From a virus (taxonomy: Duplodnaviria; Heunggongvirae; Uroviricota; Caudoviricetes): DNA of 64,000 nt. A program made the position numbers and the translations under genes. Location: IMG/VR virus record IMGVR_UViG_3300017989_002952, positions 18,891 through 82,890 of that record. The stretch is one strand, 5' to 3'. This document shows, piece by piece, positions 2,011 to 53,377 of the stretch (its first letter is position 1; each line of letters starts with the position of its first letter). Below the pieces are notes generated by a model. The model was not told the origin of the DNA. It ran no database searches and saw only the letters and a program-made list of their open reading frames with translations.

Positions 2011-2105
2011 GGAGTAGTTTTTACCAAAAAACTTCCATTCTAATTCAGCACCATTTCCAGAACAAAATATAAAGTTCATAGTTTGTAAATTCACAAGGAG
2101 ATGTT

Positions 2106-5316: not shown

Positions 5317-5400
5317 TTTATACCCTCCTAAAGAATATAATAAATTATCTTCTTAGTTATTAATATATATAGAAATGGAGATTTTGCGGACAACAAAAAT

Positions 5401-5520
5401 TGGTAGAGAGCGTGGTAATTCAAACCACATCATACCCCACAAATGTCGCGCTCATTAGTGGAGGCAGGTATGACCCGAAGCTGGACTCTCTACCACGAAG
5501 TTGGAAGGGTTCGAACCTCC
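5401..5520. other. GC-elevated intergenic structured element: 10-bp perfect long-range stem (tggtagagag 5401-5410 / ctctctacca 5486-5495) followed by a T-arm-like palindrome GGTTCGAACC
   Basis: Seen directly in sequence. GC is locally higher than the flanks and there is no credible ORF. Confidence 0.4.
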
Positions 5521-5655
5521 GCAAACTGACCCCTGCTTTCTAGCCTCAAAAGCATGTCGACGTGGGTAATCAGACGCCGGGCAGTTGTCCATTTTTGAAC
5601 AGTGCCTCACCTGGCTCTCCGCAAAAGACAATTCACTATGTGCAAATCATCTTTC

Positions 5656-5675
5656 AAAAAATAATATATAGTTTG
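5656..5675 (+). promoter_or_regulatory. candidate promoter motif AAAAATAATATATAGTTTG upstream of the 5764 gene
   Basis: Same TAATATATA-type motif, ~90 nt upstream of the start. Confidence 0.3.
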
Positions 5676-5763
5676 AAACGCCTTTCCAATATCGCTTTAC
5701 ATATAGAACATAATATAAATTCGGAGAAGTATGAATAACTAAACTCATGAAAGGAGAGAAATC

Positions 5764-6054: not shown

Positions 6055-7077
6055 CTATGTTGAGATAATGATCGTACCATCCTTTTCCGCTCTGAGCGAA
6101 CTTCCCCTTGGAAGGTGTTTCATAACCTCGAGAACTTCTTGTATTCGACCGTTACCCGGCATTGTCGAGACAAGTTTTTTCACTTCAACTTGACCGGCAA
6201 GGCACTCAATAACTTTCTTAATATGGGAACCAATAGTCTCAACCCCACCGTCCGACATGGAGTCAAGGTTAGTGATTTCCATATTTAAATGTTGTTTACA
6301 GAACTGGTCCAATTCCATAGCGATTTCTATCAAGATTTTTTCTGCCGTTACAGTGTCAGGATGTCTTCCTGTGGAAACATCTTTCTTTTTGGTAGCTTTC
6401 TTTTTGTTCCTAACTAATTCATTGGTTTTGTCTCGAACAGTGGCACCCAGTTGAATCGGGTCTGTATTGTTGAAGATACCATCACGAAATTTCAGCTCGA
6501 CTGTCTTGTCGAGTTGTTTGGTTTGCGCATTACCAAGCAACTCAAGAACTTTGAAGACAGTTCTACATTTAGTTGTGGTTGATGCCAACTTGAGATCAAG
6601 CCCATGCTTCTTTCCAAGACCAACAACCGCCTTTGCAAGTATGGGCGGCGTCATTGGAGCTCTTTCACCTCTTGGAATTTCAACACCCTCATCTTTCAAA
6701 ATTTGGGTTATTCCAGCATTTTGAAAGTTGGCGGCAACTGATATGATAGACGCTTCCATATCTACCCGTTCTTTTGTCCTGTTCTTAGGCGTATACATCG
6801 TAAAAAGATTTTCCATTTTTTCAAGTCTCCTTCCTTCAACTTCTGCGATTTCGTCCTTTGTGTAAACTTTTACTAGTCCATGGAATTCAGATTCAGGTTT
6901 GTGACTTCGAAATTTTATACACGGTGGAGTTTTTTGTTTTTTCTGCTCCATAATGATTTTTCTTCGAAGACATTTCGCTTCCTCTGTTTTTTCATCATCT
7001 TCTAATTTTCGTAGATGTTCAGCGACAGGAACGCCATTGATTGTAATCCCCGCCCATCTTCCTTCATCTTCATTCAT
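6055..7077 (-). CDS. hypothetical protein (340 aa), Lys-rich, possibly nucleic-acid binding
   Basis: Long clean ORF with no recognisable catalytic motif. Confidence 0.45.
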   Translation of the reverse strand: MNEDEGRWAGITINGVPVAEHLRKLEDDEKTEEAKCLRRKIIMEQKKQKTPPCIKFRSHKPESEFHGLVKVYTKDEIAEVEGRRLEKMENLFTMYTPKNRTKERVDMEASIISVAANFQNAGITQILKDEGVEIPRGERAPMTPPILAKAVVGLGKKHGLDLKLASTTTKCRTVFKVLELLGNAQTKQLDKTVELKFRDGIFNNTDPIQLGATVRDKTNELVRNKKKATKKKDVSTGRHPDTVTAEKILIEIAMELDQFCKQHLNMEITNLDSMSDGGVETIGSHIKKVIECLAGQVEVKKLVSTMPGNGRIQEVLEVMKHLPRGSSLRAEKDGTIIIST

Positions 7078-7092
7078 GCATTCTTCTACCCC

Positions 7093-7464
7093 CTATTCCC
7101 ATTCGACGGGATCATCTTCTACTACTTCAAATTTTACGACTTCAAGACCAACGGGTCCAAGATCATAATAAAACCGCATACCTTTCAAGAAACTGTCGAT
7201 TAGAAGCCACCTTATATATTCAGGGATATCTCGCTGGTCGTTGAACATACTGGTCCATTCCTCAATTTGAAAGAAACGTGAACCAGTTTTCTTGATATTT
7301 GAAGCATCCCAGAATCTAAGATCGGGAAACTCAGAGCGACGTCGCTCTAAGAACTCATTAAAAAGAGTTTTGAACTCCTCCACTGTTAAATCCTCGCTTG
7401 ACTTGATTGAAAGAATAAAACTAGCAGAGGAACTATTCGTAACTTCGGATACTCGGAATTTCAT
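7093..7464 (-). CDS. member 1 of MKF[RK]xSEVTNSSSTSF N-terminal-tag family
   Basis: Starts MKFRVSEVTNSSSASF (ATG at 7464, GGAG RBS). The longer ORF to 7494 is probably read-through from an upstream Met. Overlaps the 3' end of the upstream radical-SAM gene. Confidence 0.55.
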   Translation of the reverse strand: MKFRVSEVTNSSSASFILSIKSSEDLTVEEFKTLFNEFLERRRSEFPDLRFWDASNIKKTGSRFFQIEEWTSMFNDQRDIPEYIRWLLIDSFLKGMRFYYDLGPVGLEVVKFEVVEDDPVEWE

Positions 7465-8578
7465 CGTGTTTTTGGATCTCCCCGAGCACCTCAAGCGGGC
7501 AACAATAGTTATTTTCTCTCAATATTTTTCTGAATAAATTAAAAGGTTCACTATTCGCCCACACGTCTTTCATTGTCCGTCTTAAGTGCTTACCTGGTTT
7601 AAGAGTTATACCATGGTTGACATGGTCGCCTATTGAACACGGAACTAATCTGAGGTCAGGAGTGATGTAACAAGATTTTCTACCTGCGCAACAGAAATCA
7701 AAAGTAATTTTCTCAAATGAACTCAGTTCGCCGTATTGTGTGATGACGTGCTTACCAAGACATGGGTCCATACCTGCTACAAATTTTCTGAGATCTTGGT
7801 GTTTCATGGCTTCAGCAAATATTTTAAATTCGTTGTTATTAAGCCTCCAAAGCTTCTCAGGTTTGTTTCTACCGCACCCCTGTGGTTTATACAACAGGAA
7901 CGTGACCCCAAACAACTTGTCTAAATCAATCTTACCATCCCAAACGTCTTTTCCGTGTAGCATATCAACAGCTTTAGGAAAAGAAAGTTTGTCCAAGACT
8001 AGTTGTATGCTGGTTTTAACATTCGCCTTCATAAGTCTGTTCAGTGCTGAGTAGGTTTCTGGTTGACCATAATCACTAACCGCAACACTTGGGCAGTATT
8101 TTTTGGCGGTAGTTATCTGTTCATCTGTTAAACGAAATCCGCTCGTTGTAAATGTAGGTGCAATGTTATTCTTTCGACAGAAAGCAACCATTCTTTCAAA
8201 ATCAGGATGGTCATTTGGATCGCCTCTTCCGCCAAGAGCACATTGTGTGATATATGGAGCAGATTGTTTAATGACTACTTTAAAATCGTCAAAAGACATA
8301 TGAGGTTCTTTTTTCCGACCCTGATAACAGTTCTCGCAGCCATTTTGACAGTGTCCCATGACACCAATATCTAACAGAGAAGGAAATTCAAGACCAAAAG
8401 GCTCGGTATGATCTCCTAAACCCTCAAGAATCTCATGTCCATTCATAGCGTTAAACAAAATAACATATGTTTCCTTTGAATTCACTATCACTTTTGTCCA
8501 CAGTTGCCGTGAAAGCGAGTGTTGTTCTTCTGTCCACGAACTCTTGTTGATGTTTAGCGGAATTTTTTTAATCTTCAT
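7433..8578 (-). CDS. radical SAM enzyme with Cys-rich C-terminal (SPASM/twitch-like) region
   Basis: CX3CX2C = HCQNGCENCY; GGRGDP resembles the GGE SAM-binding motif; C-terminal CCAGRKSC...VPC cysteine cluster. Confidence 0.65.
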   Translation of the reverse strand: MKIKKIPLNINKSSWTEEQHSLSRQLWTKVIVNSKETYVILFNAMNGHEILEGLGDHTEPFGLEFPSLLDIGVMGHCQNGCENCYQGRKKEPHMSFDDFKVVIKQSAPYITQCALGGRGDPNDHPDFERMVAFCRKNNIAPTFTTSGFRLTDEQITTAKKYCPSVAVSDYGQPETYSALNRLMKANVKTSIQLVLDKLSFPKAVDMLHGKDVWDGKIDLDKLFGVTFLLYKPQGCGRNKPEKLWRLNNNEFKIFAEAMKHQDLRKFVAGMDPCLGKHVITQYGELSSFEKITFDFCCAGRKSCYITPDLRLVPCSIGDHVNHGITLKPGKHLRRTMKDVWANSEPFNLFRKILRENNYCCPLEVLGEIQKHDEIPSIRSYE

Positions 8579-9581: not shown

Positions 9582-9693
9582 ACAGTCCTTCTAATGAGTA
9601 ATATATATAAGTATTTTGTTCATTCAAAACTAATCCGTCCTGTTCATATACTTAGAACAAATTATAAAGTTTACTAGTGCGGAGTTCAAACTA

Positions 9694-27478: not shown

Positions 27479-27719
27479 CTGTCCTCCTTTATTAACAACG
27501 TAAAATCGATGGAAGAATCTCCTTTATAGTTTGTTCTAAATAACGTAATGTTTTTGGTTATTTCTAAACAATTATATATATTACTTACTGAGAGGAGTCA
27601 TTGTCTTTTTAATGACTCGCCTACGTATCCTATACTATCTGACTTCAGTCAGTTTTTTCCTTTGATGCATGAAGGAAAAGCAAGAAGGTTCACCCCGAAC
27701 AGGAACCTTCTCCGACTTT

Positions 27720-27846
27720 GAGATACGATCCGTCGTCTAGTCAACGACATGTTCTACTCAAATGATTTTGAGACCCCCCGAAACTGCTGGAAGAAGCCGG
27801 CCCCAAAATTATTTGATTGTTCAAGGATCGTATCTCGGTTCGAACC
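27720..27846. other. GC-elevated structured element in the terminase 5' leader: 12-bp perfect long-range stem (gagatacgatcc 27720-27731 / ggatcgtatctc 27825-27836) followed by GGTTCGAACC palindrome
   Basis: Seen in sequence. An additional 8-bp hairpin gaaggttc/gaaccttc lies at 27684-27710. Confidence 0.4.
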
Positions 27847-27899
27847 TTCGGTTTTGACTAGGGCCGCTGGCTCTAGTCCTAAAAGTTTTTGTATATTTT

Positions 27900-29117: not shown

Positions 29118-29271
29118 TACGTAAACTCCCTTGTCTTTATTTTTTGTTCGGGAAATTTACAACTATATATATAAACTAAGTAATAAATTACTTTTAGAGT
29201 TGGTCCGTAGAAACGACTGTTCTAAATATATTAATAACTAAGAATATAAATTGTTTACAAGGAGGTGTGTC

Positions 29272-32655: not shown

Positions 32656-33036
32656 TTAGTATCCTCCTTCACCTCTTATGATTTTGACGTTTTCAGGCAA
32701 GTCAAGGTCATTGAGACCTTGATGGGTTAACATTACTTCCATTGGGTCATCACTCTCATCGCTAACATGCAAAACGTGTACTACACCTCCTTCCTCTATG
32801 ATAGTCTTTGCTGCCTCGTACTGCTCCTTCTCAGATCCCTCGACGTCATCTGGTGTATAACCGTACCAGTCATCCAACCATCTGTCGAGATCCTCCAACG
32901 ACTTAATAGTATTTTCCGAATACCTACTCAAATCGACCTTCATTGTGATTTCAGTAATAAGACTCTGATCACCTGTAGAGCCAATTATAAATGAGGTGCT
33001 AGATGAGTTGGTTACTTCACTCATTCGAAACTTCAT
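32656..33036 (-). CDS. member 2 of MKF[RK]xSEVTNSSSTSF N-terminal-tag family (acidic)
   Basis: Starts MKFRMSEVTNSSSTSF with a GGAGGA RBS. Very acidic C-terminal part. Confidence 0.55.
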   Translation of the reverse strand: MKFRMSEVTNSSSTSFIIGSTGDQSLITEITMKVDLSRYSENTIKSLEDLDRWLDDWYGYTPDDVEGSEKEQYEAAKTIIEEGGVVHVLHVSDESDDPMEVMLTHQGLNDLDLPENVKIIRGEGGY

Positions 33037-41825: not shown

Positions 41826-42155
41826 CTAAGGAACCAATTCAGGTCCTACGGTTGTCTCTACTCCTATACTTGTGTATTCTCCTGCAGGATCAGGATTGTG
41901 TTGAGGCGCCGTCGTGGCTTTAAAGCACACATTTTCAACACCGCCGATAGGACAGAGTTGATATTCGTCTTCAATAAAGAATCTATCACCTGGTTTCAAT
42001 CCTTCAATACCATCTCTCAAGACTGCTACTGTCCCTGCTGACTCTACAATTAAAATTGTCAACTTACCACGATTGTCAATTGTATATTCTCTTTTTTCAA
42101 CGATCATGTTTTTCTCCTTATAGAAAGTAATGGTAATCAAAGCCGCCCTCAACAC
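41826..42155 (-). CDS. hypothetical protein (109 aa)
   Basis: ORF only. Confidence 0.35.
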   Translation of the reverse strand: MLRAALITITFYKEKNMIVEKREYTIDNRGKLTILIVESAGTVAVLRDGIEGLKPGDRFFIEDEYQLCPIGGVENVCFKATTAPQHNPDPAGEYTSIGVETTVGPELVP

Positions 42156-43038
42156 CCTTGTAATTGACCGCTATTGCTTCTGAGGTGTGAATACTTTCCT
42201 CATGAATACTCTTAACTACCCAATCACGAACACCAGGTAGGGCGTCTAATTGATCGCTTATACCTCGAATTGCATCCTCGACAAATATTGGATTTTCTCC
42301 AGCGATACGAGCAATCTCTTGTTCATCTTCCCTTTTGATTATTGGATATGGAATGGTCTTGATTGCTCTCTCAACACATTCTACAAGATCCTCTAACCAC
42401 ACATAATGATTCTCTTCCTCCATATCTTTTTCAGTAATGATATGGGCGAAAGACCGCTGCGCATGCGGAAACCCATTGCTCCCTTTCTTATCCAAATCTT
42501 TACAGAGTTCGGCAGAACAAGGACAGTAGCTGGCATATTGAACTATAACACCTTGAAAGAATCGAAATTCAAGAAGGTCGCCAAGTTTGCCTGGATACTT
42601 AATAAGCTGTCCTTCAAATCTGCTATCATGGAAGATGGGGAATTCATTATCCGACAGCGCAGACGGTCTATTTATCGGAAGTTTAAAATCGAACCGCATA
42701 TAACTCTCTGTTGAACCAACTCGCTCCATCAGGTCCAAAAGGATACCCCGTATTAACTCTTTCTTCAAAGGTAAATCCAAGTATTTCTTTAATGTCCTCA
42801 GAAGCCGGGACATTGAGATTCCCTTTGTATCAGCGTCGAGATTGGTTCTCATTGATACATTAGCAGTCATTGGTTTAAATCCTCCATATTTTGACTCTAA
42901 TGAAAATGGAACCATAACGTTCTCAACACCAACTTGTCTAATCAGTCTCCTTATCCTCGGTTTTGTCATCTGAATGTCCGGAAGGTTTGAAGAAGAGCGG
43001 TTGTCCGCCTTTGATTGGTCGGAGTTTCTTTCTGACAT
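42118..43038 (-). CDS. T-fold GTP cyclohydrolase FolE2/MptA-like protein (tentative)
   Basis: ~300 aa. The YCPCSAELC...FPHAQRS...E cluster has spacing reminiscent of the Cys/His/Glu metal site of type-2 GTP cyclohydrolase I. Recalled from memory, not verified. Confidence 0.3.
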   Translation of the reverse strand: MSERNSDQSKADNRSSSNLPDIQMTKPRIRRLIRQVGVENVMVPFSLESKYGGFKPMTANVSMRTNLDADTKGISMSRLLRTLKKYLDLPLKKELIRGILLDLMERVGSTESYMRFDFKLPINRPSALSDNEFPIFHDSRFEGQLIKYPGKLGDLLEFRFFQGVIVQYASYCPCSAELCKDLDKKGSNGFPHAQRSFAHIITEKDMEEENHYVWLEDLVECVERAIKTIPYPIIKREDEQEIARIAGENPIFVEDAIRGISDQLDALPGVRDWVVKSIHEESIHTSEAIAVNYKGVEGGFDYHYFL

Positions 43039-43555
43039 CTAAATTCTCCTTGTGTTTTTGTATAATCGCATCAAACACATTTTCAGGGACAAACTTTTTA
43101 ACCATATCTTCCCAACCATTCGGACCAACCAAGTCTTTTACTGTACTTGAACTAATGTCAATCAGAGAATGTGGCGGGATGAGAAACACAGTAGTGATAC
43201 CCGGATTCATCCCGCCATTTATCTGACGCATTGTTGATTCGTAATTATAATCTTTTATAGACCTGATTCCTCTCAGAAGATAATTCGCTTTTTGTGCTTG
43301 TGCGAAGTGAATAAGATATTCATTCCCAAGTAACATCGTGGTCACATTTGGGAATATGCTTGTAATTTCCGTTACCATTCTCAACCGTTCAATGTTGTTG
43401 AAATATGGTGTTTTTGATGGGTTTGTTCCAATAGCAACGATGAGTTTTTCAAATAATTTAGACCCCTGAGAGATCATCCAAAGATGACCTTCAGTTGGTG
43501 GATCAAAACTACCTGGATATATCGCTATCTGTGGATGAGGGTATGTTTCGTTCAT
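42938..43555 (-). CDS. phosphopantetheine adenylyltransferase (CoaD)-like cytidylyltransferase-family nucleotidyltransferase
   Basis: IAIYPGSFDPPTEGHLWMI matches the (H/T)xGH nucleotidyltransferase motif (GTFDPITNGH in PPAT). LRGIRSIKDYNYESTMRQINGGMNP and the ISSSTVKD block match PPAT's C-terminal motifs. Confidence 0.6.
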   Translation of the reverse strand: MNETYPHPQIAIYPGSFDPPTEGHLWMISQGSKLFEKLIVAIGTNPSKTPYFNNIERLRMVTEITSIFPNVTTMLLGNEYLIHFAQAQKANYLLRGIRSIKDYNYESTMRQINGGMNPGITTVFLIPPHSLIDISSSTVKDLVGPNGWEDMVKKFVPENVFDAIIQKHKENLDVRKKLRPIKGGQPLFFKPSGHSDDKTEDKETD

Positions 43556-46500
43556 TTGGATTCACTCCTATTGTAAGTAAATATGCTTCTAGTAATTTCA
43601 CAGATTCTGCAACCATCGACTCATCATTACCATCTTCCTTAACCAAGTCTGTCTCAATTGTATTACGAAGGAACTTATTTTTCAGATCTATACAATCTGA
43701 TTTGGTTGTCAAGAATTCAGAGATGTTGTATGGAGCATCATGTCCAATAAGACAAGCTGTTTCCATTTCTCCAAGTCTTTGACCGCCCTTATTTTTTCTT
43801 CCCGCTAATGGTTGCAATGTTCTTCTTGCATATGAACCAATACCTCTTGCTGCTAATCTGGATTCAGCAATATGGACCATTCTGAAGAAGTACATATAAC
43901 CAACCGCAATTGGATTGACCAAATGCTGACCAGAGACAGGATCAAACACTTTCTGCTCAAATTTTGTATTTGTATACTCCAAGACTTTTTCAAGAATTGT
44001 CGCCGTTACAGATGAGAAAGGTGGCTGTATTAATGTAAGTTCGTTTATGAACTTTTCATCAATTATATCAGGGAGTTGTTCAAAGAACTGATATGTATAC
44101 CATTTTGTCTCGGTATTATCAACCAATTCAAAGAAACCTGCAAGATATCTTTTGAGTTGAGCCTGTCCTTTCTTGTTAGCAATCATCTCCAACAAATTCT
44201 TTTTAAGGTCTTCAAGCGCTAGACTAAGATGTAATTCAAACAACTGCCCGATATTCATCCTGCTAATAATTCCCAATGGATTTATACATATATCTACGTG
44301 TCGTCCATCCTCAAGTTGAGGCATCATTTCATGTGGAACGATGGTTGAGATAACTCCCTTATTCCCATGACGATTTCCGACCTTATCTCCAACTTGTATT
44401 TTGCGAGTGTATAAACCAAACATCTCGACTTGGATACCATTGATCTTTTCTTTCTTCGCTTTGTATTTTCTCGTGTAACTACTCTTATCGAGTCCGTTAT
44501 CACGAATGAACCGGGTGGCATCTTCTTTCGACAGATGCTCTTTAATAATTCCCTGTAACTCTTTTTCTCGTTGGACTTGAGATTCTATTTTTGCTTCAAC
44601 CCAATCTTTAAATTCTGGAATATCCTCATTCCATTGGTTCGCATAAATATTTACTTCGCTAATTACAACAGACTTCTTTGTCGTCAGCGGGATGGGTTCT
44701 TCAAATATAGAGCAGAAATCAGTCGGTCCACCTGGGACCTTCTTCATAATTGCATATGGTTCACCAACTGCAATTTTGTCAAATACATCTGGAAGAGGCT
44801 TGTAGTTATTTTCCTCAAGACTGAGCAAGACTTTATCCGGTGTTAGTGTAAAGGAGAAGTCCCGATAATGGACTGAGGTAAACAATCCTTCATTCACAAG
44901 TCTGTCAGAAATAACAATACCATCCTCATAGTTATAACCGTAGTAGACCATCACAGCAGTTAGCAAATTCTTCCCAATATTGATATTACCTTGGGTGCAA
45001 TAATTACTTTCTGCTAAGATATCCCCTGCCTTAACTTTATCACCCTGTTTGACATATACATTAATTAAATCCATATTTTCAACATAGATTTTTCGATATC
45101 CAATGTTAAATACATCGACTGTATTATCAACATATGCAACAATCAGATACTTGTCATCAATGAATACAACTTCGCCATTTTTCTTGGCTCGTTTTACAAA
45201 CTGGGTATGATCTGTGTATAAACCTTCACAACCAGATCCAATCATTGGTGTATCAAACTTCTTCAACAAGATAGCCTGACGCATCTGAGATGATGCCATT
45301 TGGAGTCGAGTTTGGTCATCGTGCTCCAGAAATGGAACCATTGATACCGGAATAGATATTGGAGATTTTTCTAATGCCTCATCTGTAAATCTGAGATTCT
45401 CATCGAGTTTTGTGTTGACTAACATATTCTGCAAAACTCCACAATTATCTCGGTCAGGTGTATCAACAGGACACATACGACCAAACATTGTGTCGCTTAG
45501 ATCCCTAAGATGCTCTGGAACATTCTCTCTTTTAAATCCACCAGGACCAACCAAACTGGTTCTTGACAGCTTGGTTAACTCTTCAATCGGGTTAATCGAA
45601 AAGTCAAATTGCACAATGTCAGAAACATTACACTCTGTCAAGATTTTTGTCGAATTCACATTGAATTTGGCGTTTCTTGTTGTTCTATGCGCAAGGCATA
45701 GATCAAATACAGCCTTGGAGACTTTCGATGTGATGATATATTCAAAACATCTAACTCTCTTATTTTGAAAATCTGTATCATCATAATTTGGATCTTGCAT
45801 CACATCCACAAACTCTTCAATAACCGAATCCGTCTTAAAGAATTTAGCAGATAATGGATCTACTTTCAACATAAGGTCAAGAGCATACATCAACGATTCA
45901 CCCTTCGCTTTGAAATTATACTTAGAGTAAATCCTTCCAATTTCTCGCAGGATATCGTTTTCGCTAAAGTCCTCATCTGTTGCATCATACATCTCTTTTA
46001 AATCATACAACATTTTACCGTAAATTGTATCCTTGTCTGGATTAAGAGTATCAAAATCAAATCTCTCGTTTAGGGCTTCAGGTCCATACTTTGCAAACAT
46101 AATCATACAGAATGGAACTCTTTTGCCCAATACACTCAGATACACATACGGTGGTTCTTTATTTTCGAACAACATCATTGTGGCAACATTTGTCCGTATC
46201 TTGATAGCTTTACCTCTAGTCACAACTGGAATATCAAATAGCTGAAACAGAGGAATCTTCTTTCTGCCATTAATAACCAAATAGTTATCATCAATGAGCT
46301 TTGGAATTTGCATTGAGAGGTCTATGTTTGACGTTCCTCTTGTCAGTTTAATTACAAGATTTCTCCGGAGAGTTTGATGTAACTCCCCGGATGCCATCTT
46401 AGAATCTTTAATTCCAAAATCTGAAATCTCAAAACCAATTTCTGTAACTGGTTGAAGAATTTCGTTAATTGTCTTTTCTAACTGTCCATACTCAGTTTGT

Positions 46501-46559
46501 CGAATCTGAAAGATATTACTTTCTTCATCAACCTTGAACATAGGATTGACAAATTTCAA
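43509..46559 (-). CDS. rpoB: multisubunit-type RNA polymerase beta subunit (RpoB-like), compact 1016 aa
   Basis: Contains GDKVGNRHGNKGVIS (the invariant beta-subunit active-site signature), 1016 aa. TTG start codon at 46559 with an AAGGAGG RBS. Confidence 0.85.
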   Translation of the reverse strand: MKFVNPMFKVDEESNIFQIRQTEYGQLEKTINEILQPVTEIGFEISDFGIKDSKMASGELHQTLRRNLVIKLTRGTSNIDLSMQIPKLIDDNYLVINGRKKIPLFQLFDIPVVTRGKAIKIRTNVATMMLFENKEPPYVYLSVLGKRVPFCMIMFAKYGPEALNERFDFDTLNPDKDTIYGKMLYDLKEMYDATDEDFSENDILREIGRIYSKYNFKAKGESLMYALDLMLKVDPLSAKFFKTDSVIEEFVDVMQDPNYDDTDFQNKRVRCFEYIITSKVSKAVFDLCLAHRTTRNAKFNVNSTKILTECNVSDIVQFDFSINPIEELTKLSRTSLVGPGGFKRENVPEHLRDLSDTMFGRMCPVDTPDRDNCGVLQNMLVNTKLDENLRFTDEALEKSPISIPVSMVPFLEHDDQTRLQMASSQMRQAILLKKFDTPMIGSGCEGLYTDHTQFVKRAKKNGEVVFIDDKYLIVAYVDNTVDVFNIGYRKIYVENMDLINVYVKQGDKVKAGDILAESNYCTQGNINIGKNLLTAVMVYYGYNYEDGIVISDRLVNEGLFTSVHYRDFSFTLTPDKVLLSLEENNYKPLPDVFDKIAVGEPYAIMKKVPGGPTDFCSIFEEPIPLTTKKSVVISEVNIYANQWNEDIPEFKDWVEAKIESQVQREKELQGIIKEHLSKEDATRFIRDNGLDKSSYTRKYKAKKEKINGIQVEMFGLYTRKIQVGDKVGNRHGNKGVISTIVPHEMMPQLEDGRHVDICINPLGIISRMNIGQLFELHLSLALEDLKKNLLEMIANKKGQAQLKRYLAGFFELVDNTETKWYTYQFFEQLPDIIDEKFINELTLIQPPFSSVTATILEKVLEYTNTKFEQKVFDPVSGQHLVNPIAVGYMYFFRMVHIAESRLAARGIGSYARRTLQPLAGRKNKGGQRLGEMETACLIGHDAPYNISEFLTTKSDCIDLKNKFLRNTIETDLVKEDGNDESMVAESVKLLEAYLLTIGVNPNERNIPSSTDSDISR

Positions 46560-46577
46560 CGTTTTTGTCCTCCTTCC

Positions 46578-46790
46578 CTAGTTGTGGAAATAAATCGGTT
46601 GATGTACGTTTGTCCTTACTTGGTGTAAGAACCCTTGTAATGACTTTTGTATTGCACGTTTCGATGATAATCTCGAACCACATTTTGCCATCATGGTTCC
46701 ATTTCGAGCGATCCACGCCCAACTCCACCATGTGTCGCCATAATCTTCTTCGCTCCAGATATTATAACCGGGTCGTAATTTAGGTCTCAT
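46578..46790 (-). CDS. small ORF between the RNAP subunit genes (70 aa); frame choice ambiguous with 46528..46731
   Basis: Two overlapping candidate ORFs occupy the beta'/beta intergenic gap. Neither has a recognisable motif. Confidence 0.25.
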   Translation of the reverse strand: MRPKLRPGYNIWSEEDYGDTWWSWAWIARNGTMMAKCGSRLSSKRAIQKSLQGFLHQVRTNVHQPIYFHN

Positions 46791-47022
46791 GAAACCTCCT
46801 ATCTACACCCTCACCAATTTTCTTAGCGGCGCTTATCAAAGCTTGATCTCTTAAATCACCCAAATACCCACCACTAATTTTCCTCAGAACCCGGCGATCA
46901 GTGCATACGTCTTGATTCTTGCGCATAAATACACAGATTGCCTTTCTTACTCGCAGTCGATCTTTTCGTATCTGTTCCAAATGGTCTAACGCCACTTGTA
47001 GTTCTGTTGTGTCGTGTATCAT
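46780..47022 (-). CDS. small basic protein (80 aa) translationally coupled to the RNAP beta' gene
   Basis: Its start overlaps the beta' stop (ATGA). Possible RNAP accessory subunit. Confidence 0.4.
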   Translation of the reverse strand: MIHDTTELQVALDHLEQIRKDRLRVRKAICVFMRKNQDVCTDRRVLRKISGGYLGDLRDQALISAAKKIGEGVDRRFHET

Positions 47023-49727
47023 TGTATTCTCTCCCCTTTTAGTATCGTATCCATAACACCTGTATAATGACCACTATACAAGATGCCTTTAAGAATACTT
47101 CTCTTTGGGTTTGAGAATGCCAACGCCAATAACCAACTTTCATATGATGGGACTGTTTGAACAGAATGGAATTCAGGTGTGTATCTGTCTCGATTGTGGT
47201 GAAGACGCCATTTGGTATAACCAAACCACATCAACTGGGCAACCACACATTCAAAATGAACATGGTGTATGGATCTGCTATTATTGTAAACTTCATATAG
47301 CTTATGGACAAGAGTAATATACGTCTCACCCCTAAATTGATGAAGAAGTTTAGAAGCTACAGATAAATCATTAACAATATCCATTTGCTTCATATCGTCA
47401 TCTTGGTGCATATCCTTGATAACAGCAACCCCACTCGTGTGGAAGGTTCTCAATACCAACTGTGTATTTGTTTCTCCCATAGATTGAGCTGCAATAACAC
47501 CCACAAATCTACTGTCAATCGACTTGTATAATTCACCATAACATTTACAACAGACTCCAGGATTATTACAGAATATAGGACTTCTTACCTGGATTGTTTC
47601 ACCCTCAATCTCTCCATAATTTTTCTCGGTGATAAGTTTCAAACCATTCTTATCTTTCATCCATTTACCGACTAACATCTTTGCTTTCTTCCTGTCAGAT
47701 ACAAACACGTCGAGAAAGTCTTCCGTGCCACAATCATCAACAGATGTGTCAAGAATCAAATTAGCACAAGCAAAGATTAACTTTCTAGAAAGATAACCTG
47801 ATGACCCTGTATTAAGAGCAACGTCCAGAAGCCCTTTTCTACTTCCATATGTTGAATCAAAGAACTCCTTTTGTGTCAACCCGTTGAGAAAACTATGTTT
47901 TATCGGGTGTGGAATAATTTGACCCTTGAAGTTCGAGATAAATCCTCGAGTTAACACTATTTGTCTTACCTGATCCCAAGAACCCCTTGCTCCAGATTCA
48001 ATCATATATGAGTAAGAGAAGTTGTCTTCCAAGAAACGTTCTGTTTCTCTACTAGAAACATTATTTAACTGCTCCCTGATATCTTCATCCTCACCATATA
48101 GAGAACCTTGTAATTCATTGGCTCCTACAACCCGAGAAGCTTTCAATGACATAGAAGCTCCATATAACGTACTGTATTTAAACCCTAATCTTTTAATTGC
48201 ATCCAGAGTTACAGTCATAACTTCATAGGGATACTCGCGTTTGATTTGATTGAGTATTGCCCCAAGCTGCTTTTTGCCGACAACAGTATTTACAACAGGA
48301 TAAGTTTCGGGAAGACATTCATTAAACATTATTCTTCCCTTCGTAAGGGTTTCACCCTTGTATTCTTGTTGCTCTAATAATTCTGGAAATTGGTCTTTTG
48401 TAAGCATGTAGAGTCCAAGAATAATATCTTGACTCGGTGTTGTTGTAAGACTTTCATTTGCTGGATTTGTGAAATTTCTGGTAATAAGGAACTTGTCAAG
48501 CACTTCGTCTTTCGTCTTTCTTGAGATTGGGATATACACTGCCATTTGATCCCCATCAAAATCTGCGTTAAATGGGGGACAGGCTAACGGGTGAATCTTG
48601 ATAACATTATCAAGAGACACCTTAACTTTAAATCCCAACATACTTAATCGGTGTAAGGATGGTTGTCTGTTTAATAGACAGACCTCTCCTTTAACCAAAT
48701 TTTCACAGAGACTAAACAATATTGGTATTTGATATTCGATGCAATTGTCGACAAAGTCAATCCCTTGATTTAGGGTTTTAAACTTACCAACTTCAATAAG
48801 TTTCTTTGCAATTTTGAGTTTGAATAACTCAAGAACCATTAAATATGGAAGTACACATTCTTCCAAGTTAATAGTTGGATCAGGAATAATCACTGCACGT
48901 CCAGAAAAATCAATTCTCTTACCGAGTATATTACCTCGAATCAACCCTTCTTTCTTTGACATCTTTTCAACGATGTGACTATACAAATCGTTGACATCCT
49001 TTTGTAGTTGTTTAAAGTAACTATAGAAGAGTTCTTTGTTTCTAAGAATATCAACCATCGTCTCTTCCATAGTTTCTTTCTTGTTGAGAATCTGGTTATA
49101 GAAACGATTAATCTTATCTACAACCTGACTATTCCTCTCAACGCCCTTTGCCGCTGGTCTGAGATCTGGAGGCAGCACGATAATTTCACGCAAGAACATC
49201 TTGTGGACATTATCTTGTATTTTTCGCCACTCATCCATTTCATCAGCAAGTTTATCAGCCAACCCTTCGACTAACTCTTGAATGGCTTCCAATCTTTCCC
49301 ATTTGTCCGAAACATTTTCTGGTAAATGGTCTTCGGTGGTCACAACATATTCATCGCCGTCCATATACATTACTGCATCTTCTTTTTTCAGAAGCGTGTC
49401 GACAGCGCCCTTGATGTCCTTACCACCCACATCTATCAGGAGATCATAAAATACTGGATTCATGACTTGAATGGGTAAAACAATTTTTGCAAACCTTCTT
49501 CGTCTTTCATCACTATTAACAATGTCAACACCGCAGTCTCCACATGTGCCACCAGCTTTTGAAATTCCAAAATACGTTCCGCATTGACAGGTATAGTTCT
49601 TTAAGGGTCCAAAGATCTGCTCCGAGAACAGTCCATATTCATGGAAGTGTTTCTTATCCATGATTTTTGAGGATTTGACTTCGGGTAATTCCTCACAAAA
49701 TCGTGCGTAGTCCAGAAGACCTGGCAT
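47019..49727 (-). CDS. rpoC: multisubunit-type RNA polymerase beta' subunit (RpoC-like), compact 902 aa
   Basis: N-terminal Zn-binding CQCG...CGDCG. Catalytic NADFDGDQMAV motif. Confidence 0.85.
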   Translation of the reverse strand: MPGLLDYARFCEELPEVKSSKIMDKKHFHEYGLFSEQIFGPLKNYTCQCGTYFGISKAGGTCGDCGVDIVNSDERRRRFAKIVLPIQVMNPVFYDLLIDVGGKDIKGAVDTLLKKEDAVMYMDGDEYVVTTEDHLPENVSDKWERLEAIQELVEGLADKLADEMDEWRKIQDNVHKMFLREIIVLPPDLRPAAKGVERNSQVVDKINRFYNQILNKKETMEETMVDILRNKELFYSYFKQLQKDVNDLYSHIVEKMSKKEGLIRGNILGKRIDFSGRAVIIPDPTINLEECVLPYLMVLELFKLKIAKKLIEVGKFKTLNQGIDFVDNCIEYQIPILFSLCENLVKGEVCLLNRQPSLHRLSMLGFKVKVSLDNVIKIHPLACPPFNADFDGDQMAVYIPISRKTKDEVLDKFLITRNFTNPANESLTTTPSQDIILGLYMLTKDQFPELLEQQEYKGETLTKGRIMFNECLPETYPVVNTVVGKKQLGAILNQIKREYPYEVMTVTLDAIKRLGFKYSTLYGASMSLKASRVVGANELQGSLYGEDEDIREQLNNVSSRETERFLEDNFSYSYMIESGARGSWDQVRQIVLTRGFISNFKGQIIPHPIKHSFLNGLTQKEFFDSTYGSRKGLLDVALNTGSSGYLSRKLIFACANLILDTSVDDCGTEDFLDVFVSDRKKAKMLVGKWMKDKNGLKLITEKNYGEIEGETIQVRSPIFCNNPGVCCKCYGELYKSIDSRFVGVIAAQSMGETNTQLVLRTFHTSGVAVIKDMHQDDDMKQMDIVNDLSVASKLLHQFRGETYITLVHKLYEVYNNSRSIHHVHFECVVAQLMWFGYTKWRLHHNRDRYTPEFHSVQTVPSYESWLLALAFSNPKRSILKGILYSGHYTGVMDTILKGERIQ

Positions 49728-49730
49728 AAG

Positions 49731-50000
49731 CTAATCCTCCTCTTTAAATGTCTTGTTGATACTGTCAGCTAGGAACAACAGATGTTCCTTTACTTTTCTT
49801 GAAATAAGCTCGTCCAAATCCGGAATCACTTCGGCTGCAATAGCCTTGATGTCCTTCTTGGTCAACTCCATCTTCTTTTTCTTGACTATCTTTTCTATGA
49901 ATTCAGTGGCTTGTTTTTCTAAAGCCTCAAGACCACCGAGCAATTCAAATATTGCCGGATATTGTTCTTCAGGAGTCTTCTCCTTGCTCTTTTTGGTCAT
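49731..50000 (-). CDS. small helical hypothetical protein (89 aa)
   Basis: ORF with GGAGG RBS, directly upstream of the beta' gene. Confidence 0.4.
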   Translation of the reverse strand: MTKKSKEKTPEEQYPAIFELLGGLEALEKQATEFIEKIVKKKKMELTKKDIKAIAAEVIPDLDELISRKVKEHLLFLADSINKTFKEED

Positions 50001-50217
50001 TCGATTTCTCCTTTGACAACTTGTCTACAATTTTTTCTTTCTTATCTTTCCAGGCTGTAGTCAAGCCATTTTTTGCTACTTCAATTAACACATTTACTGC
50101 TTTGACCCCACTCTCTTTTAAAGGTTCTTCAACTTTTTCTAGAAGTTCAAGAGCAACAGGAGCCAACCCTTTACCGATTTTTTCACAAGCTTCTTTGCTG
50201 GATTTCTTAATATCCAT
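49969..50217 (-). CDS. small helical hypothetical protein (82 aa)
   Basis: ORF with AGGAGG RBS. Confidence 0.4.
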   Translation of the reverse strand: MDIKKSSKEACEKIGKGLAPVALELLEKVEEPLKESGVKAVNVLIEVAKNGLTTAWKDKKEKIVDKLSKEKSNDQKEQGEDS

Positions 50218-50228
50218 GCATAACCCTC

Positions 50229-50618
50229 CTATTCATAGGTGAATTCGTGCCAGGGTTGAAAGTAACTGTCATCGAGGTTAAAAGTTTGTAATAGATTCGC
50301 TACAGTTGGTATTATGGTTTCATCCGATTTTTTGAACTTTAGATCTTTTGGAAGACAAAGTTCTCCAGACGTTGGATGACAGTTTGGATGTACCCCATTA
50401 ATAACAACCCTCTTAAGCAAATCACTATCTGTAAAGTGTAAAGTGAACCCATGAAATACAAATTTATCTACTATGTCTGTAATGGGTCTCACTTCTCCTT
50501 TAAAGATAAGTTTCGTCGGAACTATTTCCATCTTAACGGGGACCCTTATCATTTCGTGTTCTCCTCCTACCTTTCCTACGCCGCACCTGTCTCGGCAATT
50601 AACTCTACGAAGTGACAC
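50229..50618 (-). CDS. ubiquitin-conjugating E2-like (UBC-fold) protein
   Basis: VHPNCHPTSGELCLPKDL matches the UBC active-site signature HPN(I/V)xxxGxICL(D)(I)L, including the catalytic Cys. With a start at 50618, the HPN sits at ~77 and the Cys at ~88, as in canonical E2s. Overlaps the upstream E1 3' end. Confidence 0.5.
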   Translation of the reverse strand: MSLRRVNCRDRCGVGKVGGEHEMIRVPVKMEIVPTKLIFKGEVRPITDIVDKFVFHGFTLHFTDSDLLKRVVINGVHPNCHPTSGELCLPKDLKFKKSDETIIPTVANLLQTFNLDDSYFQPWHEFTYE

Positions 50619-51451
50619 CCGTTATGACAACCAGGTGACACGATATAACTATTGAATACAAAGGGTAAGTCTAGTGAGGAAATTAGACAGGCTATCGCAT
50701 CGTTAGAATCTCGAATTGAGCCTGCTGGTATTTTTCTTTTGACAATTGGATATTCTCTACTTCCAACGAAGATGAATACTGGATGATTTTGGTTCATATC
50801 CCTTATTTTTGGTAGGTTTTCGTATAGGTTTGTTAATTTCCTTTCTCCCTCATGCGGCTCCAATATTTCGTCTGGTTTCCTTCTAACCAACGCCATGGAC
50901 TCCGCAATGTCTCTATTTAGATAATCCAACTCGATTTTATGTATGAGTTGTTTGTCTATGATTTCTTGTAGCAATCCCTTTTGTACCAATACTGCTGCGC
51001 TAAAGGCTGCTACTCGCAAATCCGTTTTCGATAAACGATGTAGATATCGACCCTGATGGTTTGACGCATATTCAACATCATGTCTTCCATCTACGATTAA
51101 ATAACGAGATGACATATACATTCGAACATGAATACTACCCTTTCGATCATATACATAATCTCTGCAATCAATCACCAAATCACATTCGGGTATTGGTGTT
51201 TTACCTTCGATAAATTTCTCATTTATTGCTGTCAGTATAACATCTTCTCTTCGCTGCCCAATCGAGCAGCAAAGAGCTTCAGTCTTTTGCTGACCTATAT
51301 CTCCCGTTCGAAAACAGGAGTTTCTAAGGTTCTTTTTCTCAACCTTATCATGATCAATAAGCACTAAATCCTTGATTTCATCAAGTTCAGAGAGACTTTG
51401 TGCTAAATGACTACCCAGACTACCACAGCCTACTATTGCAACTTTCTCCAC
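50576..51451 (-). CDS. E1-like (ThiF/MoeB family) adenylyltransferase
   Basis: VAIVGCGSLGSHLAQSL Rossmann GxGxxG, then LIDHDKVEKKNLRNS (a DxDxVExSNLNRQ-type motif). 291 aa. C-terminal CHNGCH Cys/His cluster. Confidence 0.6.
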   Translation of the reverse strand: MEKVAIVGCGSLGSHLAQSLSELDEIKDLVLIDHDKVEKKNLRNSCFRTGDIGQQKTEALCCSIGQRREDVILTAINEKFIEGKTPIPECDLVIDCRDYVYDRKGSIHVRMYMSSRYLIVDGRHDVEYASNHQGRYLHRLSKTDLRVAAFSAAVLVQKGLLQEIIDKQLIHKIELDYLNRDIAESMALVRRKPDEILEPHEGERKLTNLYENLPKIRDMNQNHPVFIFVGSREYPIVKRKIPAGSIRDSNDAIACLISSLDLPFVFNSYIVSPGCHNGCHFVELIAETGAA

Positions 51452-51526
51452 GGGTATCCTCCATTGTTTCTCTCTCGACCTATAAGGTTTGTTATTTGTT
51501 CTTTATAAATGAATTTGTTTCACAAA

Positions 51527-52203: not shown

Positions 52204-52680
52204 CTAGCCTTTACGGCCTGCTGGTTTCAAGAACTCCAAATCATCCCCTTCTTTGAGGACGTAGCTTCCGTCAACCTTGTCGCCGTTCACAATACCTTCA
52301 TCGAGGCGGCCTACATTGAGAACCTCCCTCAAGAATTCACCAACGGCACCAACAGTCTTTCCTGCAACCGGAAACTTACCAGAATTGGCTCCGCAAGAGA
52401 CACTGATGGCTGTCGTACACCTATCCCCAAATTTCTTTTCGGGATTGGTCATGACGCTGGACATTTTGAAGTCAGCCTTTGTGACTTTTTCCACACCGGC
52501 AGTCTTTCTCAGTTTCGCCATGTGACCTGTGGACTTTGCTCTGGCAGTGACCTTGTTGGCCTTCAGAATGGCATCAATGATAATGTCCTTGCGCTTCTTG
52601 CTCATTCCAGGTATGCTCTGGTCTCGACACATTTGGCGCAGTTCGGCTACTGTCTTCTCTTTCAATATTGCTCTCGTCAT
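52204..52680 (-). CDS. SAP-domain + beta-grasp ubiquitin-like (ThiS/MoaD-like) protein ending in Gly
   Basis: N-terminus KTVAELRQMCRDQSIPGMSKKRKDIIIDAIL fits a SAP helix-extended-helix. The C-terminus ...VNGDKVDGSYVLKEGDDLEFLKPAGRKG resembles a ThiS/MoaD beta-grasp tail. The first ~36 codons overlap the 3' end of the upstream E1-like gene in another frame; an alternative start at 52521 gives a 106-aa Ubl-only product. Confidence 0.4.
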   Translation of the reverse strand: MTRAILKEKTVAELRQMCRDQSIPGMSKKRKDIIIDAILKANKVTARAKSTGHMAKLRKTAGVEKVTKADFKMSSVMTNPEKKFGDRCTTAISVSCGANSGKFPVAGKTVGAVGEFLREVLNVGRLDEGIVNGDKVDGSYVLKEGDDLEFLKPAGRKG

Positions 52681-53377
52681 TCGATCGATCTCCTTTTACT
52701 AAGGGTTTTCGGGTTTGAGATCTAACACTCATTGTTTGAATGTCAAAATAGATCTCAGCACAACTAGTTGGCTCTTTGCCATTTAAAACTACTGTGTAGA
52801 ACGCCCAACACATGATTGTAGCTACCGAAAGGTTGGTAAACAGAAGCTGCGGCTCAGCCTCTGCCAATTCTTCACAGCCCATATCCTCAGGTGACCGGTC
52901 ACCTGGGGTTGCTATTTCCGGGTGGTAGTCCGTCAGTGATGGTGATAAATTCACACCTCCCTTTCTCACATAAATTTGGACATTACCGTCGGTAAATTCA
53001 TTACCGCCCGAAATGATTGTGACATCATCTAACCCTTCGGCGTGGTCAGATATCACTTTCCTTGTTTTGTGGTTATCGACACATACAAATACAACATCAC
53101 CATTTTTGACAATTTGGGCGACATTTTCTGCATTGACATAAGAGTCTACATCTTCAATATAGATCTTATGATAATTCTCTTTCAAATCCTCAGATTTGAT
53201 TTTCGCCTTATTACCAAAATCAGTGAACACTTGTCTTTGCAAATTCTTGTGCTCGTAAGCATCCCCATCAACCAATGTAAGTTGAGGCGTTTCTACTGAC
53301 GAGTAATTTAGAAACCTACAAAGCGCTTCACAGAGGTAAGTGCCGACCCCACCCAGGCCAATAACCTTGATATTCAT
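52574..53377 (-). CDS. second E1-like (ThiF/MoeB family) adenylyltransferase
   Basis: IKVIGLGGVGTYLCEAL GxGxxG, then LTLVDGDAYEHKNLQRQ (DxDxxExxNLxRQ). 267 aa. C-terminal ~40 aa are low-complexity. Confidence 0.65.
   Translation of the reverse strand: MNIKVIGLGGVGTYLCEALCRFLNYSSVETPQLTLVDGDAYEHKNLQRQVFTDFGNKAKIKSEDLKENYHKIYIEDVDSYVNAENVAQIVKNGDVVFVCVDNHKTRKVISDHAEGLDDVTIISGGNEFTDGNVQIYVRKGGVNLSPSLTDYHPEIATPGDRSPEDMGCEELAEAEPQLLFTNLSVATIMCWAFYTVVLNGKEPTSCAEIYFDIQTMSVRSQTRKPLVKGDRSNDESNIEREDSSRTAPNVSRPEHTWNEQEAQGHYH

Follow-up and report, generated by a model that had tools for sequence, protein, structure and literature searches.

A compact, unsplit β′–β RNA polymerase pair in an uncultured tailed phage and its place among the mReC enzymes

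The RNA polymerases (RNAPs) of phages phiKZ and AR9 are phage-encoded multisubunit enzymes of the double-psi β-barrel type, two sets of which are found per genome; no α, ω or σ homologue has been detected for them, and they are associated with short conserved phage-specific promoter motifs. Each of their β and β′ subunits is split into 2–3 polypeptides and is highly diverged. The multimeric RNAP-encoding Caudovirales (mReC), whose β and β′ branch outside the cellular lineages (Weinheimer & Aylward, 2020, Nat Commun 11:4506, PMC7481178), are like phiKZ and AR9 in all of the former respects (two sets being seen here in relatives), but both subunits of both of their sets are single polypeptides that align well to cellular subunits, with sporadic splits and inteins in the set called ‘a’, and a fifth subunit like gp68/gp226 was not identified. 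Here we describe a β′–β pair in a 64,000-nt stretch of tailed-phage DNA (positions 18,891 to 82,890 of IMG/VR record IMGVR_UViG_3300017989_002952), referred to below as the window.

The published mReC contigs are metagenomic and myovirus-like, and their supplement lists several with two sets: set ‘a’, with a β of ~1360–1370 aa and a β′ of ~1005 aa, and set ‘b’, with a β of ~1000–1019 aa and a β′ of ~900 aa (PMC7481178). The window’s pair corresponds to set ‘b’, is likewise unsplit, and is accompanied by a TerL of the same Pfam family (PF03237). In that paper, RNAP served as a phylogenetic marker and the paralogous pairs, not discussed in the main text, are distinguished only by the labels ‘a’ and ‘b’ in Supplementary Data 2; the small gene next to β′, the variable slot between the subunits, the TTG start of β and the promoter-like motifs described below are not treated there.

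We consider it highly probable that the window’s pair is the core of an mReC phage RNAP, complete and compact, in a phage that we infer to carry a second pair and to divide roles between the two; of two phage RNAPs, β′ and β would most likely supply one with its catalytic core. Taken alone, the finding enlarges a published enzyme class by a single genome, and the comparative picture is worth more: these abundant uncultured phages have two whole cellular-type pairs, an under-described architecture, together with a conserved small partner gene and conserved promoter-like motifs. The locus also defines a clonable minimal RNAP of 902 + 1016 aa, possibly with a further 89 aa, on which assembly and promoter recognition by a multisubunit RNAP lacking α, ω and σ could be studied, and which could bear on the question of whether phage RNAPs are ancient enzymes or reduced ones.

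The two subunits and their affiliation

The window holds a single β′/β pair, each subunit being one open reading frame (ORF), as is also the case in 82 related loci (coordinates in Table 1). In β′, all five RNA_pol_Rpb1 domains of Pfam were matched, domain 1 under its curated cut-off. Residues 387–393 read NADFDGD, the Mg-binding loop of the double-psi β-barrel, in which N387, D389, F390, D391, G392 and D393 were invariant across 73 homologues and A388 was at least 90% conserved. The N-terminal zinc cysteines are C47, C49, C62 and C65, and the full set of β′ regions (Zn finger, bridge helix, trigger loop and C-terminal region H) lies within one polypeptide. By sequence, the nearest solved proteins were bacterial β′ subunits (E = 1.6e-100), and an AlphaFold2 model made with an alignment of the 73 homologues as input (predicted local distance difference test, pLDDT, 79; predicted template-modelling score, pTM, 0.72) matched whole bacterial β′ chains in Foldseek, with query TM-scores (TMq) of 0.71–0.75. 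In β, Pfam matched Rpb2_6 (E = 6e-55) as well as Rpb2_3 and Rpb2_7 (E ~1e-12), and residues 724–736 are GDKVGNRHGNKGV, the catalytic-lysine loop GDKxxxRHGNKG; nothing in Pfam matched residues 1–320, where the protrusion and lobe domains would be expected.

We mapped both subunits onto those of Escherichia coli by local alignments, having set aside a global hmmalign alignment that misplaced insertion SI3. Residues 16–445, 444–554, 556–671 and 710–771 of β′ correspond to E. coli 37–516, 557–668, 705–819 and 878–944, and residues ~779–836 to E. coli 1203–1263; absent are E. coli 517–556, 669–704 (one arm of the secondary-channel rim helices), SI3 (943–1130), most of the jaw and the C-terminal tail. 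For β, residues 311–387, 398–570 and 711–982 correspond to E. coli 507–583, 658–838 and 1050–1323, with SI1, SI2 and E. coli 584–657 absent. Compared with E. coli (1342 and 1407 aa), β is 24% and β′ 36% shorter, because the bacterial lineage-specific insertions (SI1 and SI2 in β, SI3 in β′) and some peripheral elements are absent. As the conserved core is continuous in these alignments, the subunits are compact by loss or absence of peripheral modules and not by truncation or fragmentation, and the conservation of gene length (885–914 aa for β′ among the 120 best homologues, 996–1061 aa for β among 74 distinct homologues) argues against an assembly truncation. Judged by their predicted products, both subunits were shown to be full-length, bacterial-type and unfragmented, with their catalytic motifs intact. 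Certain ‘b’-type β′ homologues are longer (1285–1343 aa), which suggests insertions past residue ~766–783, close to the aligned trigger-loop motif.

These results bear out most of what an earlier, sequence-only reading of the window had proposed, namely an unsplit two-gene multisubunit RNAP of a tailed phage, with its catalytic signatures intact (NADFDGD and zinc cysteines in β′, the lysine loop in β) and its subunits ~25–35% shorter than bacterial ones. Its coordinates were all correct, the 80-, 70-, 89- and 82-aa ORFs that it had named all exist, and the alignment that it had suggested located the missing insertions on E. coli as given above. It had allowed that parts of β or β′ might be encoded elsewhere; we found no separate fragments. 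It had also allowed for truncated, host-like rpoBC genes, and here the pair could be seen as cellular rpoBC in one of three guises: host DNA brought in by faulty assembly, genes that the phage recently acquired from its host, or genes that have been truncated. The best solved relatives in both sequence and fold are indeed bacterial β′ subunits, with which the pair shares the Zn finger, NADFDGD, bridge helix, trigger loop and β lysine loop, and two homologues stand in NCBI under the names of archaeal metagenome-assembled genomes (MAGs). However, β′ is only ~28% identical to any bacterial β′, the gene order (β′ then β) is the reverse of rpoB–rpoC in E. coli, no α, ω or σ gene lies near the pair, the neighbours on the ~180-kb contig are phage genes (tail sheath, baseplate, TerL), gene length is conserved across hundreds of homologues from viral contigs, and the published phylogeny sets the clade outside the cellular lineages (PMC7481178). 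We give a cellular origin of this kind next to no chance. The two archaeal names (Thorarchaeota and Heimdallarchaeaceae MAGs, for the ~900-aa proteins P0078 and P0099, 59% identical to the window’s β′) probably mark mis-binned phage contigs.

The TTG at 46559 is the sole in-frame start of β, with AGGGAAGGAGGACAAAAACG in front of it and a strong Shine-Dalgarno sequence (AGGGAAGGAGG). Among the 82 loci, the codon aligned to β residue 1 was TTG in 58, ATG in 12 and GTG in 5, the ATG starts falling mostly where ATGA overlaps the β′ stop, and a strong GGAGG-type Shine-Dalgarno sequence preceded the β start in all of these. The β′ start was ATG in 81 of 81 loci, and β alone among the ~70 genes of the window has a well-supported TTG start. 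The TTG start, suspected from the window’s letters, is real, and is a conserved, gene-specific feature of β; it would probably lower or tune the translation of β relative to β′.

With regard to affiliation, four contigs on the published mReC list carry a related β′: Ga0180432_10000070 (locus L003; 149,482 bp; 84% identity to the window), Ga0180434_10000255 (L004; 80,832 bp; 65%), Ga0180433_10000139 (L005; 121,292 bp; 65%) and WOR52_10000459 (L007; 277,131 bp; 64%). We base the mReC affiliation on identity, not on a tree: β′ is 84% identical to the ‘b’ copy of Ga0180432_10000070, against ~28% for bacteria. By this measure, the pair is a new genome’s version of the published enzyme class, from a contig absent from the published list. 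Hallmark genes in the window include a tail sheath, TerL, a T4 baseplate protein and gp25. The published mReC markers are TerL PF03237 and the major capsid protein (MCP; PF07068/VOG11186) (PMC7481178); nothing in the window matched PF07068, and the MCP gene may lie outside it. We also considered the ‘moraphage’ lineage (PMC12619734) as the home of this phage, and ruled it out because moraphages lack RNAP genes.

A near-identity DNA search of 50,697 phage records gave no match, and no cultured member of the clade with ~900-aa β′ was found among these records. In metagenomes, on the other hand, this β′ family is very large (hundreds of members, 59–84% identical), and relatives are encoded on 298 IMG/VR stretches. 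Among phage proteins, the best matches to the window’s RNAP were 24–27.5% identical. Unsplit β′ subunits were found in the cultured Rhizobium phage RHph_Y65, Vibrio phage Va2, Cobetia phage Carin-5 and Yersinia phages YerA41 and vB_Yru_GN1; these resemble the window’s β′ in being single polypeptides (76–85% of the query covered), but are only 24–27.5% identical and lie outside the ~900-aa clade, and that of RHph_Y65 (1127 aa) has no adjoining β gene. The enzyme is thus not without precedent: the mReC clade to which it belongs has been published (PMC7481178), and unsplit β′ subunits also occur in cultured phages.

Small ORFs and the gene string around the pair

The pair stands in a tightly packed, co-directional string of genes, which runs from a ThiF-like gene through a gene for a protein with an HPN...Cys signature, small ORFs and the gene for an 89-aa protein to β′, variable small ORFs and β. 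We counted the families of this string in the 82 related loci by iterated hidden Markov model (HMM) searches; 79 of the loci had enough flank for the 89-aa family. A homologue of the 89-aa protein (consensus ..MPxLDxxISxxVKxHF..) lies directly upstream of β′ in 66 of these 79, and the family profile had no significant match among PDB sequences, Pfam or PHROGs. From its conserved position, the 89-aa protein would be the best candidate for an accessory factor of the RNAP.

The remaining small ORFs are far less widespread. Homologues of the 80-aa ORF were present in only 8 of the 82 loci, and of the 70-aa and 82-aa ORFs in only 2 each. The 82-aa ORF matched nothing in Pfam or PHROG. The 70-aa ORF is probably a real gene, since L003 has in its place a 76-aa ORF with which it shares 52% identity; its top PDB profile match, a UPF0339/YegP-family protein, was not significant (E = 0.4). 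A reading of the 220 nt before β as a non-coding regulatory leader was ruled out, as this ORF fills the stretch and has a protein-level homologue in L003. An overlapping 67-aa ORF had no homologue in the 82 loci.

The 80- and 70-aa ORFs might be thought to encode obligatory phage-specific subunits or promoter-specificity factors, given that the 80-aa ORF is coupled to β′ by an ATGA overlap and that some small ORF occupies the slot between β′ and β in most relatives. This we regard as very improbable. Three or more unrelated families occur there (the 80-aa family in 8 loci, a ~60-aa family with MRDPxRI..PDLRLTQLIMN in 31, the 70-aa family in 2), as do inserts of 260–390 aa in a few loci, and in ~25 loci the slot holds no ORF at all, β overlapping β′ or beginning 10–27 nt after it; relatives with a 57–69% identical β′ would not be able to do without a core subunit. 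With occurrences of 8, 2 and 2 in 82 loci and ~25 loci in which β′ and β abut, the 80-, 70- and 82-aa products cannot be core subunits. As far as comparative sequence can tell, all three ORFs are lineage-specific, and the 80- and 70-aa ORFs are accessory cargo of a variable slot. Among the small ORFs suggested as accessory subunits, broad conservation is seen only in the 89-aa family.

At the head of the string, the ThiF/E1-like gene was present in 77 of the 82 loci and the HPN...Cys family (o129, ~110–130 aa) in 76. In the latter, H77, N79 and C88, nine residues on, are invariant and P78 is at least 90% conserved. This signature resembles the active site of E2/UBC enzymes, PDB profile matches to which reached only E ~0.8–1, and a second ThiF/E1-like gene lies near the o129 gene and the first ThiF gene. 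On the other side of the pair, a cytidylyltransferase-like gene overlaps the 3′ end of β by 47 nt and is followed by a gene for the GTP cyclohydrolase FolE2 (Pfam GCHY-1, E = 7e-55), which is found near the RNAP in 69 of the 82 loci and hints at nucleotide or DNA-modification chemistry.

Table 1. Coordinates of the RNAP genes, neighbouring ORFs and DNA elements (window positions unless a locus is named).
Feature	Position	Strand	Remarks
β′ gene (compact ‘b’-type phage RNAP)	47019..49727	-	902 aa, ATG start
β gene (same RNAP)	43509..46559	-	1016 aa, TTG start
89-aa helical protein gene (o89 family)	49731..50000	-	ends 3 nt before β′
80-aa ORF	46780..47022	-	ATGA overlap with β′ stop; translationally coupled
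70-aa ORF	46578..46790	-	between 80-aa ORF and β
67-aa ORF	46528..46731
82-aa ORF	49969..50217	-	upstream of 89-aa gene
Small protein gene, HPN...Cys signature (o129 family)	50229..50618	-
ThiF/E1-like gene	50576..51451	-	Pfam ThiF
Second ThiF/E1-like gene	52574..53377	-
Cytidylyltransferase-like gene	42938..43555	-
FolE2 gene	42118..43038	-
M2 site at RNAP string (AGAACAAATAACAAA)	51488..51502	-	37 nt upstream of ThiF-like gene; without TAATATATA
Other M2 sites	2059..2073, 5705..5719, 9654..9668	+
Other M2 sites	27523..27537, 29136..29150	-
M2 sites in relatives	L242 9522; L091 5504
Opposite-strand TAATATATATAG sites	L242 18048..18075 and 6930..6945; L091 14012, 3874, 2611 (minus)
Split ‘a’ β′	L103 5998..9317		779 + 238 aa, 86-aa ORF between
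Folding stretches	5370..5660 (+), 27600..27899
MKFRxSEVTNSSSxSF paralogues	7093..7494, 32656..33036, 58773..59300 (-)
Radical-SAM genes	7433..8578, 59297..60373

A probable second pair, promoter-like motifs and a proposed division of labour

Both RNAP sets were found together on at least 11 IMG/VR contigs, and a 2023 paper describes an mReC-like viral MAG with two RNAP loci. In the closest relative (Ga0180432_10000070), a second locus (L242) encodes an ‘a’ β′ of 1004 aa followed directly by an ‘a’ β of 1366 aa, ~32 kb upstream of its ‘b’ pair and on the same strand; the distance in relatives is generally ~32–36 kb. The ‘a’ and ‘b’ sets share ~29% identity; the ‘a’ β′ keeps NADFDGD and lacks the N-terminal zinc cysteines, the catalytic motif of the ‘a’ β is GDKLTNRYGAKG, and upstream of the pair, within the same strand block, lies a baseplate hub gene (Phage_base_V). 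The ‘a’-type β′ protein P0328 (1004 aa) is 84% identical to that of L242 and shares a contig signature (3 contigs, the longest of 183,522 bp, JGI plus ENA) with the window’s β′ and 89-aa protein. On the strength of this signature and identity, the window’s phage very probably carries an ‘a’ pair too, ~20 kb past the window’s right end. The ‘a’ β′ is split into two ORFs in L103, and in some lineages carries intein or homing-endonuclease domains (PF14528, PF14890 and PF05204); proteins P0290, P0292, P0352, P0122, P0124 and P0130 are examples of such lineages and of the longer ‘b’-type β′ homologues mentioned above.

Two promoter-like motifs recur in the window. The claim that TAATATATA recurs upstream of operons was confirmed, with 5 sites against 0.57 expected and none of 100 shuffles reaching 5. 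All of the sites are intergenic and at structural operons, and none is at the RNAP operon; four of the five have an extended form, YTYAGTnAnTAATATATATAR, before structural or packaging operons (the operons behind the motif being tail-sheath, baseplate and terminase), and the extended form recurs in intergenic gaps clade-wide. The motif may serve this enzyme, as the sequence-only reading suggested, or else the other pair or the host polymerase. The second motif, M2 (AGAACAWAWNAYAAA, AGAACA-type), is strand-specific and had 6 matches in the window against 0.34 expected, one of them at the head of the RNAP string. Four of the five TAATATATA sites are followed by M2 at a distance of 43–61 nt, and a fifth M2 match follows a TAATATATT variant near 29.2 kb; structural operons are thus among those that M2 precedes. 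Its position upstream of the ThiF-like gene is conserved in L001, L002, L003, L007, L009, L011 and L077. Of 28 ‘a’ loci, 12 have M2 ahead of the RNAP operon, in every case in the sense orientation, and no antisense copy was found. Sites resembling σ70-type promoters and intrinsic terminators occurred at chance level in the RNAP region.

By analogy with phiKZ and AR9, we infer that the two pairs share out the infection programme, one enzyme being packaged and transcribing early genes and the other being made during infection (PMC7598289). The compact ‘b’ pair would then more likely be the non-virion enzyme, made during infection and transcribing middle or late genes, and the ‘a’ pair the packaged one. 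The position of ‘a’, which comes after a baseplate hub gene of its own strand block, and of ‘b’ among metabolism genes (ThiF, radical-SAM, SbcC and FolE2 as immediate neighbours) favours this assignment weakly. The roles could also be swapped, with ‘b’ packaged in the virion for early genes and the larger ‘a’ acting as the non-virion enzyme: a strongly conserved AT-rich motif of ~10 nt is what computational analysis recovers for early promoters of the virion RNAP in phiKZ-like phages (PMC7598289), a small enzyme would be easier to package and eject, and structural genes lie within 15–20 kb of ‘b’ in the window. Against this stand the neighbourhoods just described and the AT-rich motif itself, which here precedes tail-sheath, baseplate and terminase operons, usually late, so that we regard a swap as possible but doubtful.

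Several observations weigh against the overall explanation of the pair as a complete mReC core with a partner enzyme. The N-terminal ~310 residues of β are diverged, giving only a weak 31-residue match, to E. coli 126–156. No α-, ω- or σ-like Pfam domain was detected in any scanned ORF of the window, nor could the 89-aa family be related to ω, σ, phiKZ gp68 or any other known protein; in about 12 of the 79 loci this family is missing or escaped detection. The ‘a’ pair is deduced from relatives and was not directly seen on the phage’s own contig, as the window ends ~20 kb short of its expected place. Lastly, gene neighbourhood and analogy, from which the role of ‘b’ is assigned, point to it only weakly.

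A bolder version of the preferred explanation, which we put forward as speculative and think unlikely to hold in full, is a phiKZ-like two-polymerase programme with two complete, unsplit pairs, in which ‘b’ and the conserved protein of 70–90 aa whose gene directly precedes β′ would form a minimal enzyme that, lacking α and σ, reads the clade-wide AGAACA.. motif, the TAATATATATAG motif or both. If true, this enzyme would rank as the smallest RNAP holoenzyme of the ‘cellular type’ in nature, and as a tractable intermediate form linking those of bacteria with the split enzymes of jumbo phages.

Other observations on the window and its relatives

In the ‘a’ loci, an extended TAATATATATAG element is found in intergenic positions on the strand opposite to the flanking plus-strand genes, where it could be an antisense promoter or have another function. 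M2 and the AR9 late promoter (PMC7598289) have an AACA core in common, which we note as a lead only. ARAGORN and Rfam detected no tRNAs in the window, and Rfam matched nothing in the RNAP region or in the window as a whole. Two GC-rich, strongly folding non-coding stretches (raw minimum free energies of -71 and -86 kcal/mol) both hold the palindrome GGTTCGAACC, which is tRNA T-arm-like and gave no ARAGORN or Rfam match; one stretch closely follows a TAATATATA site and the other precedes TerL.

Three paralogues in the window share the N-terminal sequence MKFRxSEVTNSSSxSF, and two of them adjoin radical-SAM genes. We take this sequence to resemble the CxxxCxxC box of radical-SAM proteins, with Ser in place of Cys.

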